Virus genome (UHGV): UHGV-0126501
Length of the DNA: 46,221 bases
Origin: a virus
Reading direction: 5' to 3' (one strand)
Under the pieces are notes generated by a model. The model was not told the DNA's origin. It did not search any database and saw nothing but the letters and a program-made list of their open reading frames with translations. Position numbers and translations under genes: made by a program. This document shows, in pieces, positions 1,471 to 7,222 of the stretch (the stretch's first letter is position 1; each line of letters starts with the position of its first letter).

Positions 1471-3927
1471 TTAAAAATCAGCCTGACTCGGGATCAGTTT
1501 TTGCCAGATAGCTGAAACGTATTTTGCCTGGTAACGGGCGTCATCAAGTGCATTATGGCGCTCACCTTCGAATGGAATAGCCGTTCTGGCATCGAAGTCT
1601 ATGGCTTTCCCCAGCTCAACGATTGTGCGTACATCGCGATCGTTGTAGTAACGCCACGGGCAGGGGATCCCCTGCCGTTCGTATGAACGGCGCAAAATCG
1701 TGTTGTCGAAGTTGGCTCCATTTCCCCAGACCTGAACAAAAAATTCACCGGAGTTTTCGTCGATAAATTCTCGTAATTGTAACAGTGCATCATCTAACGG
1801 GATTTCATCGGTCATAATGGCAGATTGCGCTTCGCGTGATTGCTTCAGCCACCATTTAATAGTGTCCCGATCAATGACTCCGCCAGCAGTTTCCAGATCG
1901 ATAGTCTTACTAAATTCCGGTCCCATATCTCCGGTTTGCGGATCGAAAAATATTGCACCTATTGAGATAATCGGGGCATCAGGATTTTTTCCCATGGTTT
2001 CGAGGTCAATCATTAGATGGTCACACGTCCTGCTGGTGGATGTGATTTCGTGATGACCGTTCACCTTAATTGAGTGATCTGCCGCCTCGCCAGTTTTATT
2101 ATCGCTGGCGTGGTCCTGAGCGCTGCCAGCGTTCTCCTTGTGTGGATGTTCAGCGCCTTCCATTTCCTCCGGATCGTTTTCCTGAACTTCAACCTGATTC
2201 TCTTCATCGAATGTTTCCTGGTATGTTGCGTCGCACATCACCGCGCCACAATCAGGGCAGTTGCCGCCACCGCTCTGACCGCAGGCGGTGCAGACTTTTT
2301 CCGGTTCCTGTTGCGCTACTGGCTCAGGTTGTTTCGTTTCTGGCTCGTTTTGTAACTCATTTGGGCTGTTTTGTTCCGCTTTCTGGTCGTTCTGTTCCGT
2401 TTCTTGCTGGTTCTGATTCACTGAATCGCGGGTTTCAATCCCCTTCACCCATTTCGGATCATTCGGGTCGCTAATCCCTGCAACAAATTCACCGCGAGAG
2501 GCCGCAAGCAACTTATCGGCGTCAGGCTGGCTGGTATTGGCTGCCTGCATAATTTTGTTTACTTCGTCAGCGGTAACTTTTACCTGATTAACCGGATCTA
2601 TCTGTGCCTGAGTATCCAGCGATTGCGTGTCCTGGCGATGTTCAGTTGTATCCGGCTCCATTGCTTCAGTCGTTGCCTGTTCATCTGCCATTGCGTCAGA
2701 CGGTTGTGATTTTTCCTCATTATTTTTTTCTTCTTCTGTTTCGCATTCAGCAGCCAGTTCGCGGTTAACTTCTTCCAGGATATCTTTTTCCGGTGTATGT
2801 CGTGCAGCAGCGAGAGTTTCCTCGGTAGGGTTCTCGTGATCAGTCTCCGTTAAATAGGCGTTGATATACCCCTGAAGGCGTCCCGGGTAATGATAAAACT
2901 CAGGGTGTGCGCTCCGGATAAGTGCAAAAATAGCGGCGCGGGAATAATCCAGGATACCCGGGATTGCGCGAAGTGCTGCGGACCATTCTTTGAACGGACT
3001 TTCTTTCTTCCGGACGACTTCTTTTGCGCGACGATAAACGCTGCCCGGAATTTCATAAATATTAAAATCCATCGGAAGTGTGGCCGCTGCAATCTCCACA
3101 TCCAGCGTATCGAAGGTGTGTACTAAATTCGGATTGCGATCGGTTTTGTTCCCTCCACCGGCATTAGCACCGGAAGCCGTGCGGGTGATGCGTGAAACAC
3201 GATTTCCTTTCATCCACTCTTTTGTCAGCAGACCGCGATCGGTGTAGTCAGCGCCCAGGTATGCTTCGAAAAAAGCAGTCATTAGCCCCAGGCCTGAATT
3301 GCCAGGATTAGGGAAAACTTTGTCAGTATCACGCACCAGTTTGTGGAGATCGCGAATTTCCAGTGGATCGAGCAGACTGGTTTTATGCGAAATAGCGAGG
3401 GCAGTAACAGCTGGTAGTTCTTCAGCCCGTGCAATGTGTAATGCCTGGAGTTCGTCGCGTGAAACGTGCGTTACCGGTTTTTCGCTGCCGCGTTGAGCAA
3501 GCCAGCGAATGGGCAGTTCCTGACCGGAAACCGGCAGAAGCATGTTCTCCTCAATCTCAGCCATGTCTTCGCCGTTGACGTTGGTATTGTCAGTGCTGGC
3601 TGGTTTATCCTGAACAGAGGGCGAGGGCGCGATAAGTACCATTGTGATACCATCTTCCCCGCCTTTTTCGTATCGGTTGCAGAATTCGGTATCAAACACG
3701 CCTTCCGGAGGAAGGTCATTCACAACGGGTAAATGGACGCGAACAGGTTTTTTAAAATCCTCTTCGTCAAATCCGGCATCGTCCATTGCGACAACACCGC
3801 GTGATATTGCAACCGATAATTTTTTTGCTGTGCGCCAGTAAAAACCGCCTTTAATCCCAAGACGTTTTCTGACTTTGTCATTTTTGGCTTCGTAATATAG
3901 TGCAATTTCTTCTTTATCAGTGCTCAT
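1471..3927 (-). CDS. Large exonuclease with C-terminal DEDDh (DnaQ-like) 3'-5' exonuclease domain, annotated in prophages as exodeoxyribonuclease VIII-like
   Basis: 818-aa ORF; C-terminus has IDLETMG (Exo I), ...WGNGANFD... and [11 protein letters not shown] (Exo III, H-x4-D) motifs; acidic central linker with a Cys4 cluster ([20 protein letters not shown]). Confidence 0.75.
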
Positions 3928-4004: not shown

Positions 4005-4208
4005 TTACGGTGCTATTTTAAGTCCTGCCGGGACTTCGTTATTATCCATGCGAATAACTTTATCGACCGGATAACAGTTACCGGGAATTTTCTGTTCATC
4101 TGCGGCAGCCATGCATTCTTTCATTGAACTGTATACGCCAGTAACCATGTCAACTGGTTCACCGGAAACAAGAAAAACCGTCAGAACAAGTGCAAATGTG
4201 GTATTCAT
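4005..4208 (-). CDS. Small hypothetical protein with N-terminal hydrophobic signal/TM segment
   Basis: In-frame ATG at 4208 preceded by AGGA; hydrophobic N-terminus MNTTFALVLTVFLVSG; start overlaps the stop of the upstream gene (ATGA). Confidence 0.45.
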   Translation of the reverse strand: MNTTFALVLTVFLVSGEPVDMVTGVYSSMKECMAAADEQKIPGNCYPVDKVIRMDNNEVPAGLKIAP

Positions 4209-4393
4209 TGCCAGTATCCTTTTTGCATCAGACGTAAACGGGCCAGCATTGAAACAATGCATATTTGATTTAATAACTCCCGTTCGTGTTTTCTCTTATT
4301 AATGGCATCTTCAGTAAATGCAGGGTCACTGATACTGACACCAATTTCAAAACAACCTTCAGACGTATTAACGTTTGGTAATAACGTTTCCAT
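4205..4393 (-). CDS. Small hypothetical protein
   Basis: ATG at 4393 with GAGGA 7 nt upstream; stop overlaps the next start. Confidence 0.4.
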   Translation of the reverse strand: METLLPNVNTSEGCFEIGVSISDPAFTEDAINKRKHERELLNQICIVSMLARLRLMQKGYWQ

Positions 4394-4961
4394 TATCGCG
4401 TCCTCAACAATGAATTTTGTGATGCGGTGCCTGGTGCCTCCAGGTGACGTTAACCAGTTAACAATTAACGCCGGAATACAGGGAAACCGACCCATGAAAC
4501 AAATACAGAGTACCGATCATTTTTTTTAACTGTTCCGCGTGCGCTCAGCCGCATTCACCGCATCACAAAATTCACTTTAAAAAGGGCGGACATCAGCCAG
4601 CAATGAAACTGATGCCGCCAAAGGTACAAATCAACATGGAGTGTTGTAGCGGGGTTGTCACTTAAGCGTATGGTCAACCTGACAACCCGGTGCCACTAAT
4701 GGGGTAAGGATAACCCCGCCATACTTACCGCTGCGCCATTTCGCGGATTGCCACAACCGGAAGCGCACGGTCGAATTAAATTTAACGACACCGTACAGTG
4801 AGGCGAACTTCGCCGTGCGCTTTCGCGTTATGCCCTGACTTTTCAGGGATATATCCTTTCAGTAAACTGTCAGTGCCGGATTCTTATCCGTGTCCGGCGC
4901 ACGACAACACGCTGTCACGTGTGGTCTCCATTCTCAACCAGTAACCTCAATGGAGGATAAA

Positions 4962-5171
4962 ATGCCAAACAAGCCAATACATCCGCTTATTGAAAAACAG
5001 ATTGAATGCCTGGTTAATCAACTCAGGCAATCAGGGTTATTAAAAACTCATTCAGAGCTAGGACTCACAGAATCGGCATTCGACGATAAATTAAATAATG
5101 CGCTTTATAATGGCGTCATTGATTACAATCGTGGTGCTGGTCGTCGTGGCCCTGCTGGTACAGCTTTGTAA
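4962..5171 (+). CDS. Small hypothetical protein
   Basis: ATG at 4962 preceded by GGAGGA; 69 aa; convergent with the leftward early operon. Confidence 0.4.
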   Translation: MPNKPIHPLIEKQIECLVNQLRQSGLLKTHSELGLTESAFDDKLNNALYNGVIDYNRGAGRRGPAGTAL

Positions 5172-5810
5172 TTACCAGTTAATCCATAGCGGATAGTGTT
5201 CAGCATAAATATAGCTATACACATCCAGGTTGTATTTGCGGTCTGTCCTTAGCAGGTCGCAAATACACGCCGCAGCTTCCAGGGCGGAAGCTTTGTTGCT
5301 GAATAACCATGTAGCAACATTCCAGCGATTATCTTTATCCCACTCTTTTGCGAGAGCTGACACCACGAAGGAGCCGTTGGTGTTGCCATCAAATACTTCC
5401 GTTTCCAGATTTTTAAGTAATGCCTGGTGAATTTTTGCCAGGTATTCAGTCGGAATTTCGCCACGGATTCGGATAAGGTTGTCATAAACAAACATGTTTC
5501 CCGCATATGGCGATTTTTCTTCCTTGTTTTTTAAACCAGCATCATGAGCAAACTGATCAATTTCTTCTTCCGTTGGTTTCGTGTTGATGTTTTGCGCTGT
5601 CGTTTCTGCAATGAGTTTTGCTTTATTTTCTACACAATGATTGTTTGTGAACGAATATGAATACAGTCCGGTAAAAGAATTGCGGACATGATTTGATAAA
5701 TTTCTGATGAACAGTTTATCTACTAATATCATTGGGTTCCGCGCCAGTTGCGAGCGAATCACATCAGCGGCCATTTCCTGTATTGAAATTGGTAAATCTT
5801 TAAATTCCAT
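5172..5810 (-). CDS. Hypothetical protein in the leftward early (pL-type) operon
   Basis: Long ORF; ATG at 5810 has GAGGT 5 nt upstream (the ORF-track start at 5822 has no SD). No recognisable motifs. Confidence 0.55.
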   Translation of the reverse strand: MEFKDLPISIQEMAADVIRSQLARNPMILVDKLFIRNLSNHVRNSFTGLYSYSFTNNHCVENKAKLIAETTAQNINTKPTEEEIDQFAHDAGLKNKEEKSPYAGNMFVYDNLIRIRGEIPTEYLAKIHQALLKNLETEVFDGNTNGSFVVSALAKEWDKDNRWNVATWLFSNKASALEAAACICDLLRTDRKYNLDVYSYIYAEHYPLWINW

Positions 5811-5821
5811 CGTCAACCTCA

Positions 5822-5974
5822 TCAGTCAGTGTTTCTGGCTAACCAGCGACGCGCGCCAGCTTCGGTTTTAAACGTTTTGCTTTTGGTATATGTCATCGCC
5901 GTGAACGTGCCGTTCTGGTTGGGAAACACGCCGTACACCAGAGATTCGTTGTTGCCAAGATCGATAGTATCCAT
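5822..5974 (-). CDS. Small hypothetical protein, first gene downstream of the leftward operator
   Basis: ATG at 5974 preceded by GAGGT 6 nt upstream; 50 aa. Confidence 0.4.
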   Translation of the reverse strand: MDTIDLGNNESLVYGVFPNQNGTFTAMTYTKSKTFKTEAGARRWLARNTD

Positions 5975-6144
5975 GCTGACCTCATTTCCCCTTAACGCCG
6001 GGGTGGCGGAACAAAAACCTGCTGCATAGTTAAAGTTGAACCCTGCCGTCATGTTCTTACGCCTCGGGCTGGCTACTTAACCCCTGACCACTGCCTGGTA
6101 ACTCGAAGTATTGCCCTGCGTTCTGTGGGACGGGGTGGGTTGGT

Positions 6145-6195
6145 ATTTTTAGTTTAATAAACATTAAACTTAAGTCAAGTAAAAACTAAACCGTG
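6145..6195. promoter_or_regulatory. Left operator/promoter region (OL/pL-like): inverted copy of the right operator motifs; candidate leftward promoter -35 TTGACT (6178..6173) and -10 TAAACT (6156..6151)
   Basis: TTAAGTCAAGT here is the reverse complement of ACTTGACTTAA at 7163-7173, and GTTTAATAAAC mirrors GTTTATTAAAC at 7176-7186; AAACTAAACCG recurs as ACACTAAACCG at 7204-7214. Confidence 0.5.
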
Positions 6196-6261
6196 GGCGT
6201 AACAAACACAACGCTTTTGATAAAGTCGTTGCGGTTGTTATGTTTCTATTGGTAGTGAAAG

Positions 6262-6540
6262 TTAGGGAAACTGGCGTCTTGCGTGGATCACGTTTACTAC
6301 TTCAACGCTTGATGTTGTTACGCGGTATAGAATTATATAGTTAGGGTGGGCTACAATCTCACGCAAGCCAGGTACTCTGTCGCTTGGTGGGTATAAATAC
6401 GGATGTTCGGATAACGGCAGCACACAACCCCTTAATCGCTGCCATAAGCGTTCAGCCGCATCTATGTCGAAACGAGCAATATAACTAGTTATATCATCTA
6501 GGTCGGTATCTGCGTTTTCAAGCCATAACACGGGTAACAT
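6262..6540 (-). CDS. Type II toxin, RelE/ParE superfamily
   Basis: About 92 aa from Met at 6540; C-terminal ...IVAHPNYIILYRVTTSSVEVVNVIHARRQFP matches the RelE/ParE C-terminal pattern; start overlaps the upstream antitoxin stop. Confidence 0.7.
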   Translation of the reverse strand: MLPVLWLENADTDLDDITSYIARFDIDAAERLWQRLRGCVLPLSEHPYLYPPSDRVPGLREIVAHPNYIILYRVTTSSVEVVNVIHARRQFP

Positions 6541-6541
6541 T

Positions 6542-6733
6542 TTACTGCTTGCTCCGTTCCTTGCGCATTTTAGCAAAGCGTTCTGCCATTCTGCGCTCAA
6601 CTTCGTCATGGGGAATTGCTGGGCGCGGATCTGCAAGGCTCGTTGCTACTTTCGCACGCAGCCATTCGTTGTAACTGTTTTCTTGTTCAATGGTTTCAAA
6701 TTCAGAAACCATTGGTGAAAGGGCTCTATTCAT
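6542..6733 (-). CDS. Cognate antitoxin (ParD/RelB-like small protein)
   Basis: 63-aa ORF with strong SD (GGAGG) before the ATG at 6733; immediately upstream of and overlapping the toxin. Confidence 0.6.
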   Translation of the reverse strand: MNRALSPMVSEFETIEQENSYNEWLRAKVATSLADPRPAIPHDEVERRMAERFAKMRKERSKQ

Positions 6734-6753
6734 GTTTCCTCCGGTTTTATAAC

Positions 6754-7125
6754 TCAGGCGCGGCGGCATTTTTGCGCCGCAATCCATCTCGCTATGAGAT
6801 CTTCCATTGATTCTTTTTTCTGCTTTAACTCGCTGATTATCTGGCGTTGCTCATCCTCAGGGAAGGCTGAAAAAATCTGCAATAATTCCAGTTGATTAGA
6901 CGTTAACCCTGCATGTGGTGGAGAAACTTCCGGTTGTTCTGCGTATTCCGCATCCAGATACCCTTCCGGCATCCCGTATGTTTGCTCTATTCTTCTGGCA
7001 GCCTTTTCTCCAAACGAGGCTCTCCCACTCATTAGTTGAGATAGGTAGCTCTTCTCTTTGGGTGGCAGAGTTTTATCTTTAAACCACTCCTTGAGACGTA
7101 AACGGCGAATTTCTTTTTTTTGCAT
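6754..7125 (-). CDS. CI-like prophage repressor (HTH, no S24 peptidase domain; RacR-like)
   Basis: Divergent from the cro-like gene across an operator-rich spacer; HTH-like N-terminal segment (LSQLMSGRASFGEKAARRIEQTYGMPEGYL); ATG at 7125 sits just after a candidate -10, suggesting a leaderless mRNA. Confidence 0.65.
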   Translation of the reverse strand: MQKKEIRRLRLKEWFKDKTLPPKEKSYLSQLMSGRASFGEKAARRIEQTYGMPEGYLDAEYAEQPEVSPPHAGLTSNQLELLQIFSAFPEDEQRQIISELKQKKESMEDLIARWIAAQKCRRA

Positions 7126-7222
7126 GTGGTAATTATCTTTAGTAATCACTAAACAAGCAAATACTTGACTTAATGGTTTATTAAACACTAAACTCGCAAA
7201 AAAACACTAAACCGAGGAAGGT
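7126..7222. promoter_or_regulatory. Right operator/promoter region (OR): candidate pR -35 TTGACT (7165-7170) and -10 TAAACT (7189-7194); candidate leftward pRM-like -35 TTGCTT (7160..7155) and -10 GATAAT (7137..7132)
   Basis: Repeated CACTAAAC motifs; canonical hexamers with 17-18 bp spacers on both strands; mirrored copy at 6150-6195. Confidence 0.5.

Follow-up and report, generated by a model that had tools for sequence, protein, structure and literature searches.

What do the first leftward genes behind the early left promoter of a lambdoid prophage encode? The question is raised by the viral genome UHGV-0126501, of which the whole analyzed stretch (46,221 nucleotides, hereafter the window) carries a 212-aa and a 50-aa ORF between positions 5172 and 5974. 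The first-pass annotation described both ORFs as lying directly downstream of the left operator, with good Shine-Dalgarno sites and no recognizable motifs. It assigned them to a hotspot of anti-phage and anti-defence genes, which made them candidates for functions like those of sieB, ral and kil. We examined the gene models, their families and their neighborhood across prophages, including a third gene, on the opposite strand, that this annotation had overlooked and from which, in our judgment, most can be learned about the locus.

The leftward early operon and its first gene

The region was shown to be the promoter-proximal part of a leftward early (dicBF-type) operon of a CP-933P/Qin-like E. 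coli prophage (Table 1). The identity of the operon is given by Pfam, PHROG and Rfam matches to PaaA2, ParE, DUF1391, DicF, DicB and DUF1482, and the matching gene order recurs both in annotated genomes of E. coli and at about 75 of 80 loci from IMG/VR. The position proposed for the two ORFs, proximal to PL in a lambdoid early-left operon, is supported. Genes resembling ydaS and ydaT lie on the rightward side. Identity in the immunity region ranged between 98% and 38% across the 80 IMG/VR loci, the ParE toxin-antitoxin genes being present at some and missing at others, and at the O157:H7 locus the repressor is of the LexA family.

Table 1. Positions of the features discussed, numbered along the window.
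Feature	Position	Strand	Remark
PaaR2-like repressor	6754-7188	-	
PaaA2 antitoxin and ParE2 toxin	6262-6787	-	
Intergenic promoter-operator region	~6060-6260		
Putative OL-like operator cluster	6148-6196		palindrome GTTTAATAAACATTAAAC at 6152-6169 and a 21-nt repeat copy at 6176-6196
Putative PL-like promoter (dicBp equivalent)	6151-6178	-	-35 TTGACT 6178-6173, 16 nt, -10 TAAACT 6156-6151
ydfA, 50-aa DUF1391 protein	5822-5974	-	PF07151, phrog_751; first gene of the operon
212-aa gene (phrog_2151, "Ybl81")	5172-5810	-	two-domain protein
N-domain, residues 1-55	5646-5810	-	MEFKDLPxxIQxxAA...VRxxFxxLY; predicted helical
C-domain, residues 95-212	5175-5528	-	predicted alpha/beta sandwich, b-b-a-b-b-a-b
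p69, convergent 69-aa gene (phrog_4274)	4962-5171	+	tail-to-tail with the 212-aa gene
Small-ORF leader, three hairpins	4875-4961	+	conserved across convergent small ORFs
DicF-like sRNA with terminator	4584-4632	-	RF00039; downstream end of the variable slot
STnc100-like element	4361-4586	-	
dicB	4205-4393	-	PF05358, 127.9 bits
ydfD/DUF1482	~4005-4210	-	PF07358, 81.6 bits
RecE-like exonuclease, 818 aa	1471-3927	-	

Two described prophages serve as references. The dicBF operon of Qin in K-12 (ydfA-ydfB-ydfC-dicF-dicB-ydfD) has the same layout, with a repressor-controlled promoter, ydfA in first position and a long stretch separating it from DicF, DicB and YdfD/DUF1482; the stretch from the leader to dicF aligns closely. 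The two differ in that ydfB and ydfC, which lie between ydfA and dicF in K-12 and in ETEC1732 (L001), are absent from the window, and in that K-12 retains no more than a leader remnant at the site taken up in the window by the 212-aa gene and p69. The immunity genes also differ, with DicA/DicC in Qin and PaaR2/YdaS/YdaT accompanied by the ParE2 toxin-antitoxin pair in the window. The DicF-like sRNA of the window aligns with K-12 dicF and ends on a terminator-like site (4616-4589), and its match to RF00039 is full-length (E 4.5e-6), with a score of 38.7 bits that falls below the Rfam gathering score of 48. With the immunity region of CP-933P from O157:H7 (paaR2-paaA2-parE2, ydaS-ydaT, PL933P/OL1-3), the window shares the gene set and its orientation, the identity of the PL and PR hexamers, half-sites resembling GTTTAGTAA, and the presence of unassigned ORFs downstream of PL (PMC8630535).

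The putative PL-like promoter has the same hexamers as the PR-like promoter (7165-7194). It overlaps the palindrome GTTTAATAAACATTAAAC, which resembles sites at 7137-7154 and 7176-7193, and the 21-nt site next to it is a copy of 7197-7217, such that palindrome and direct repeat recur in the repressor/cro intergenic region. The palindrome GTTTAATAAACATTAAAC also resembles the published half-site GTTTAGTAA of the PaaR2/YdaS operator (PMC8630535). The whole window contains 13 half-sites against 6.6 expected, a count which by itself is not significant; what counts as operator evidence is their clustering at both promoters. From these sequence features we infer a promoter and an operator about 170 nt upstream of the two ORFs, which agrees with the placement of the latter directly downstream of a left operator.

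In CP-933P, the -35 and -10 elements of PL933P are those of PR933P, the operators OL1-3 accompany it, and PaaR2 together with YdaS represses PL933P about 100-fold (PMC8630535). In K-12, dicBp directs a single polycistronic ydfABC-dicF-dicB-ydfD transcript (PMC5069750; PMC10448788). If the promoter of the window is controlled in the same way, the two genes behind it should be silent in the lysogen. Such silence would argue against exclusion functions expressed by the lysogen, of the SieB or Rex type, and would favor an early-lytic role.

Both ORFs were confirmed to be genuine genes under purifying selection, and not chance ORFs. The ORF list gives the 50-aa ORF as a longer version of 76 aa (5822-6052, minus strand); the model starting at the ATG at 5974, preceded by GAGG with a 5-nt spacer, is better, and its size agrees with that of the orthologues annotated by PGAP. 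Similarly, an alternative 216-aa version of the larger ORF (5172-5822) starts at 5822, overlapping the ydfA stop. The 212-aa model from the ATG at 5810, with GAGG upstream at a 6-nt spacer, is preferable, as it matches the phrog_2151 profile end to end (positions 1-212 of 212, E 2.9e-100). Both ORFs and their good Shine-Dalgarno sites thus hold as first described. Compared with the diverged copy of E24377A, dN/dS was 0.26 for ydfA, 0.34 for the 212-aa gene and 0.23 for p69, which indicates purifying selection in all three ORFs, and the frame of the 212-aa gene is kept in more than 130 homologues.

The 50-aa product belongs to PF07151 (DUF1391), with 96.1 bits against a cut-off of 27.3 bits (E 9.3e-28); its residues 2-48 align with positions 1-47 of the 48 of the profile, and PGAP names its orthologues "DUF1391 family protein/ydfA". 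Its gene comes first behind the leftward, repressor-controlled promoter and precedes dicF and dicB, and parts of a 1.5-kb query containing it matched 4404 of 5426 complete E. coli genomes. YdfA is a known, uncharacterised and conserved core gene of this operon type, and not a variable accessory gene. In PADLOC-DB it retrieved AbiEi only (15.5 bits, E 0.0026, over 29 residues), a match that we take as noise. Literature searches on DUF1391, Ybl81, ydaF and the RefSeq accessions found no relevant publication. The initial description of both products as devoid of recognizable motifs is hence wrong for the smaller protein; it stands for the larger one with respect to Pfam, NCBIfam and PADLOC.

Domain structure of the 212-aa protein

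Searches of Pfam (E ≤ 0.1), NCBIfam, PADLOC and PDB profiles with the 212-aa protein gave no usable match. Its family is confined to Escherichia and Salmonella, with 64-100% identity, and this conservation is unevenly distributed, with a variable, mosaic stretch at residues 1-65 and hardly any variation over residues 98-212. The protein is composed of two domains, an organization that is new here. The N-domain occupies the N-terminal position in about 45 clusters of proteins of 50-200 aa with unrelated C-termini, and it can also make up a whole protein of 60-70 aa; among the PHROGs it matches phrog_1363, 6937 and 9419. When 1.84 billion cluster representatives were scanned exhaustively with HMMER, the C-domain was retrieved elsewhere in two distant Salmonella clusters only (220 and 286 aa), both with a different N-terminal part, and in the 286-aa cluster an XRE helix-turn-helix is inserted. 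The C-domain was found only in E. coli and Salmonella prophages.

Modeling of the full-length protein by AF2 was poor (pLDDT 58). When only the C-domain was modeled, from an alignment that included the Salmonella branch, pLDDT rose to 76 with a pTM of 0.71, and the predicted structure was a b-b-a-b-b-a-b sandwich. This sandwich was compared with the SUI1/eIF1/YciH fold, and ACT/ArgR-like folds were also matched; all these fold scores were generic. The residues that are invariant over the deep split within the C-domain are mostly hydrophobic or Gly, Pro, Asn or Asp, with no obvious catalytic set among them. As catalytic-type residues are not conserved, the C-domain reads as a binding module rather than an enzyme. 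The whole protein is predicted to be soluble, its highest 19-residue hydropathy average being 1.08, with no transmembrane-like segment; it is mildly acidic (pI 5.6), unlike DNA mimics.

Two candidate assignments were rejected. A SUKH/SMI1-KNR4 immunity protein was considered on the basis of the motif IPxxYL...FDGxxNG, and fold matches gave no support to it. A ribbon-helix-helix N-domain, as in the NikR-like RHH+ACT architecture, was likewise abandoned: the best PDB match had an E of 0.79 and the matches were to unrelated proteins, and Pfam scans conducted member by member returned scattered noise only.

A two-gene cassette and its leader

In both E. coli and Salmonella, the C-domain is followed by a convergent small gene of 64-69 aa, which in the window is p69. 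Its family is narrow, like that of the C-domain. The protein is predicted to be soluble and is no membrane protein; its profile had no match in the PDB, and it fell into no family of PADLOC-DB. Among 5426 complete E. coli genomes, the C-domain is present in 600 (751 places) and p69 in 597 (744 places). The order ydfA, 212-aa gene, convergent p69 and dicB is nearly constant over the 80 IMG/VR loci; in a few of them (L015, L079) the 212-aa gene occurs without p69. Both the C-domain and p69 are absent from 50,697 deposited phage genomes (by tblastn for p69), and no copy of either was found in the GTDB species-representative genomes. The pair does not have the features of a type II toxin-antitoxin system, since the 212-aa gene and p69 are convergent and match no toxin-antitoxin family.

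The association also occurs in a different genomic setting. In Salmonella and related loci (L003, L086, L087, L089 and L091-L096), a convergent p69 homologue was present in all ten, with 39-56% identity and overlapping the 3' end of the adjoining gene. An hmmsearch of these adjoining genes confirmed the C-domain in each of the seven tested (E 1e-49 to 1e-56). The Salmonella C-domain is 36% identical to that of E. coli. The Salmonella-type gene closely follows cox and belongs to a C/Cox switch of the P2 type; it differs in its N-terminal part and in the genes on either side, and DicF is lacking.

The same slot of the operon can be filled by other members of the N-domain family, and the 3' end of each is overlapped by a convergent small ORF particular to it. 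Type B proteins (179 aa) are accompanied by a Cys-rich small ORF of 80 aa at 14 of 14 loci, and the two partners diverge together (87%/96%, then ~66%/66%). Type C proteins with segments C1 and C2 (201 aa) go with a 63-aa ORF at 7 of 7 loci, and those with C1 only (135 aa), from PPompW phages, with a 77-aa ORF at 10 of 10 loci; which small ORF a type C locus has thus goes with the very 3' end of the large gene, where C2 is present or absent. None of the proteins of these variants carries a functional annotation. In total the slot is occupied by at least four different cassettes, and it is empty in Qin of K-12, where only the leader remnant is left. The slot is thus borne out as a variable hotspot; ydfA is conserved.

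It is firmly established that the 212-aa gene represents one allele of a two-gene cassette which is modular and rapidly exchanged. A type B locus has the same sequence as the window over the leader and the five initial codons (MPNKP), and beyond these the similarity is lost entirely, which implies that the variable unit is made of the C-terminal domain and the small ORF. The layout is that of polymorphic cassettes, with a conserved N-terminal region, a variable C-terminal domain and a co-varying small neighbor. The unit of function and exchange would then be the convergent cassette as a whole, namely the variable C-terminal domain and the small ORF on the opposite strand. On one side it is probably bounded by the N-domain coding sequence and on the other by the promoter and leader of the small ORF, and recombination within these borders would swap one cassette for another.

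The leader itself, about 90 nt ahead of the starts of the small ORFs, has changed less between E. coli and Salmonella than have the proteins. Three hairpins can be drawn in it. H1 (4875-4898, GCCGGA...UCCGGC) is invariant. In H2 (4907-4922) the stem is kept in different lineages by ACACG/CGUGU, CUCCAC/GUGGAG or CCCRAC/GUYGGG. In H3, positions 4926-4931 pair with 4950-4955 (CUCCAU with AUGGAG) and cover the Shine-Dalgarno sequence GGAGG at 4952-4956, and an A-U pair is swapped to U-A in 6 of 15 sequences. Compensatory changes are therefore present in both H2 and H3. Folding of single sequences recovered H2 in 14 of the 15; RNAalifold, applied to the 15-sequence MAFFT alignment, lost it because the three stem variants were misaligned. 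The leader matched no Rfam family.

The strand on which these hairpins act deserves caution. The reverse strand of the leader folds about equally well, and the leader falls inside the dicF precursor, in its known long untranslated portion; the hairpins may therefore serve the PL transcript instead. A -10-like hexamer is found 6 nt before H1, as TAAACT in E. coli and TATAGG in Salmonella. No convincing -35 element for a p69 promoter was detected; the best candidate, TTTTCA-17-TAAACT, scores 8/12 and was not called by the consensus scan. A study in K-12 reported no additional promoters in the region, for the sense direction only and in a strain that does not carry the cassette (PMC10448788).

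Possible functions of the cassette

In the operons of pore-forming colicins, the immunity gene is convergent and constitutively expressed. Colicin-type cassettes resemble the present one in their conserved N-terminal part, their variable C-terminal domain and their linked, co-varying small gene, and also in that an inducible promoter under repression precedes the large gene, the small gene having expression signals of its own on the other strand. The window differs from them, as it contains no recognizable toxin, immunity, secretion or translocation domain, p69 is soluble, and the genes are part of a prophage early operon instead of a colicin plasmid.

We tentatively prefer, with a confidence that stays well short of even, a reading in which the 212-aa protein is an early-lytic effector and p69 its cognate neutralizing partner. 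The effector would be made only upon derepression of PL. The p69 protein would bind and neutralize it, and would be expressed from a promoter of its own, independent of the immunity repressor, with translation dampened by the hairpin over the Shine-Dalgarno site. In the lysogen, p69 might then buffer leaky expression of the effector; upon induction, converging transcription from PL would shut off p69 and the effector would act. This logic is that of SOS-induced pore-forming colicins with their convergent, constitutive immunity genes.

The main competitor of this scheme supposes that the 212-aa gene and p69 are unrelated neighbors with functions of their own, co-inherited by adjacency, the N-domain and the leader being recombination anchors. 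Lambdoid genomes are mosaic and adjacent, partly overlapping genes may co-occur by plain linkage, and the small ORF of type C tracks the adjacent 3' segment, as would be expected from linkage alone, which makes this idea a serious one. It is more difficult to reconcile this idea with the persistence of the pair in Salmonella, at the identities given above and with both flanks replaced, with the nearly equal numbers of C-domain and p69 copies in E. coli genomes, and with the joint divergence of the type B partners; we regard it as rather unlikely. Superinfection exclusion or anti-restriction/anti-defence by the 212-aa protein, by YdfA or by both, after the example of SieB, Ral and Kil, is what the first-pass annotation had put forward. 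The proximity of the genes to PL and the high variability of the slot are in keeping with it, early expression would suit an anti-defence function, and DicB, encoded in the same operon, protects against phages when expressed, since it inhibits ManYZ and thereby blocks infection by lambda and 434 (PMC6832061). Yet neither protein resembles an exclusion, anti-restriction or defence family of PADLOC, Pfam or NCBIfam. The Pfam scan (E ≤ 0.1), in a database which presumably includes models for SieB, Ral and Kil, gave nothing for the 212-aa protein and DUF1391 only for the 50-aa protein. Also, the proteins are soluble and lack a transmembrane segment of the SieB type, the acidity of the larger one is not that of a DNA mimic, the prophage repressor would silence both genes in the lysogen, and YdfA is a conserved core protein. 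Taken together, these data make such a role unlikely.

A last explanation holds that the 212-aa protein is an early regulator, binding DNA or RNA or sensing a ligand, which acts on the early-left operon or on the lysis-lysogeny decision, p69 being its modulator or target. The helix-turn-helix carried by some homologues and the ACT/ArgR-like fold matches point in this direction. It also recalls the TF-smORF modules, in which a variable larger protein is associated at a fixed locus with a small protein devoid of domains (PMC10432266), a likeness reinforced by the XRE helix-turn-helix of some Salmonella homologues of the large protein. Those modules, unlike the present cassette, are divergent and lie elsewhere in the genome (PMC10432266), and the 212-aa protein of E. 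coli contains neither a helix-turn-helix nor any other detectable DNA-binding domain. Moreover, the N-domain profiles gave only noise in the PDB and Pfam and the fold scores are generic, so that a regulator appears quite improbable.

Returning to the effector and its neutralizing partner, a broader proposal can be made. Early operons of enterobacterial prophages might harbor a new family of polymorphic effector/cognate-partner cassettes, in which the N-domain would serve as an adaptor, the C-domain as a swappable effector and the small protein as a matched neutralizer, encoded under a leader hairpin that covers its Shine-Dalgarno site and opposed by converging early transcription. We consider this generalization speculative and rather unlikely.

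Databases already list the genes themselves as hypothetical proteins, and the operon is well studied; the cassette organization, the proposed cognate pairing and the conserved leader appear to be undescribed, and we found no description of the cassette in the literature. About 11% of complete E. coli genomes, O157:H7 among them, carry it within an operon which yields DicF and DicB, and each of these two acts on cell division, metabolism and phage resistance. Were the pairs cognate effector-neutralizer modules, they would constitute a new, rapidly exchanged conflict or regulatory module in lambdoid early regions, and would account in part for the "long untranslated region" that precedes dicF. 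Should the broader proposal also prove true, these cassettes may play a role in phage-phage or phage-host conflict, or may provide a lysogen-safe switch for toxic early functions.

Features of the early-left region in the window (strand as written)
Feature	Coordinates	Strand	Description
RecE-like exonuclease gene	1471-3927	-	818-aa protein, exodeoxyribonuclease VIII (RecE)-like; NCBIfam 930 bits, below the cut-off of 1269
STnc100-like element	4361-4586	-	36.9 bits, below the gathering score
DicF-like sRNA	4584-4632	-	38.7 bits, against a higher Rfam gathering score of 48
Conserved hairpin element	4875-4961	+	About 90 nt; three hairpins, 5' of the convergent small ORFs
paaR2-paaA2-parE2 module	6262-7188	-	Three components: repressor plus ParE-family toxin-antitoxin

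Gene start and distribution of the cassette

In a 216-aa reading of the accessory gene, the ATG overlaps the ydfA stop at 5822 (ATGA), and the start with the better support is found 12 nt further downstream (5810 vs 5822). Either start leaves a distance of only 11 nt between the two genes, an arrangement compatible with translational coupling. The orthologue of the 212-aa gene at 4367-5017 of locus L001 (E. coli ETEC1732, NZ_CP122823.1) is an intact ORF, 99% identical, and is labelled by PGAP as a pseudogene ("incomplete; missing N-terminus"). The lack of a family model probably explains this label, which would then be an annotation artefact.

Searches with window 4962-5810 as query recovered the type A cassette (212-aa gene and p69) from about 11% of the complete genomes of E. 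coli and from many prophage contigs of IMG/VR, whereas 50,697 deposited genomes of phages yielded no copy. Thus, the cassette may reside mainly on prophages that are either cryptic or seldom isolated as free phage.

Leader hairpins and neighbouring genes

The leader of about 90 nt is common to E. coli and Salmonella cassettes with unrelated ORFs. Compensatory changes were seen in hairpins H2 and H3, and predicted hairpin H3 covers the Shine-Dalgarno site. No Rfam match was found for this element. As the leader also lies within the dicF precursor region, either strand may be the functional one. The 3' end of the DicF-like sRNA is terminator-like, and the STnc100-like element follows directly, ahead of dicB.

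The match of the 818-aa protein is limited to the N-terminal 600 or so residues of RecE. Counterpart genes in related loci carry YdfE and Rv2179c-like 3'-5' exoribonuclease domains, and this domain content suggests that the nuclease domain has been fused or replaced.

In lambda, rexAB lies between the repressor gene and PL, the position which is held in the window by paaR2-paaA2-parE2. Related prophages have these early-left genes too; this toxin-antitoxin is present in some of them and absent from others, and their repressors are quite different.

Salmonella homologues of the C-domain protein

In Salmonella and related genomes (loci L086 and L093-L096), C-domain homologues of 286-307 aa sit in P2-like C/Cox elements. 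In these proteins an inserted helix-turn-helix of the XRE type separates the N-terminal part from the C-domain. This insertion is missing from the 217-220 aa homologues of sister loci. The two size classes constitute a natural domain-insertion series, which could aid functional dissection.
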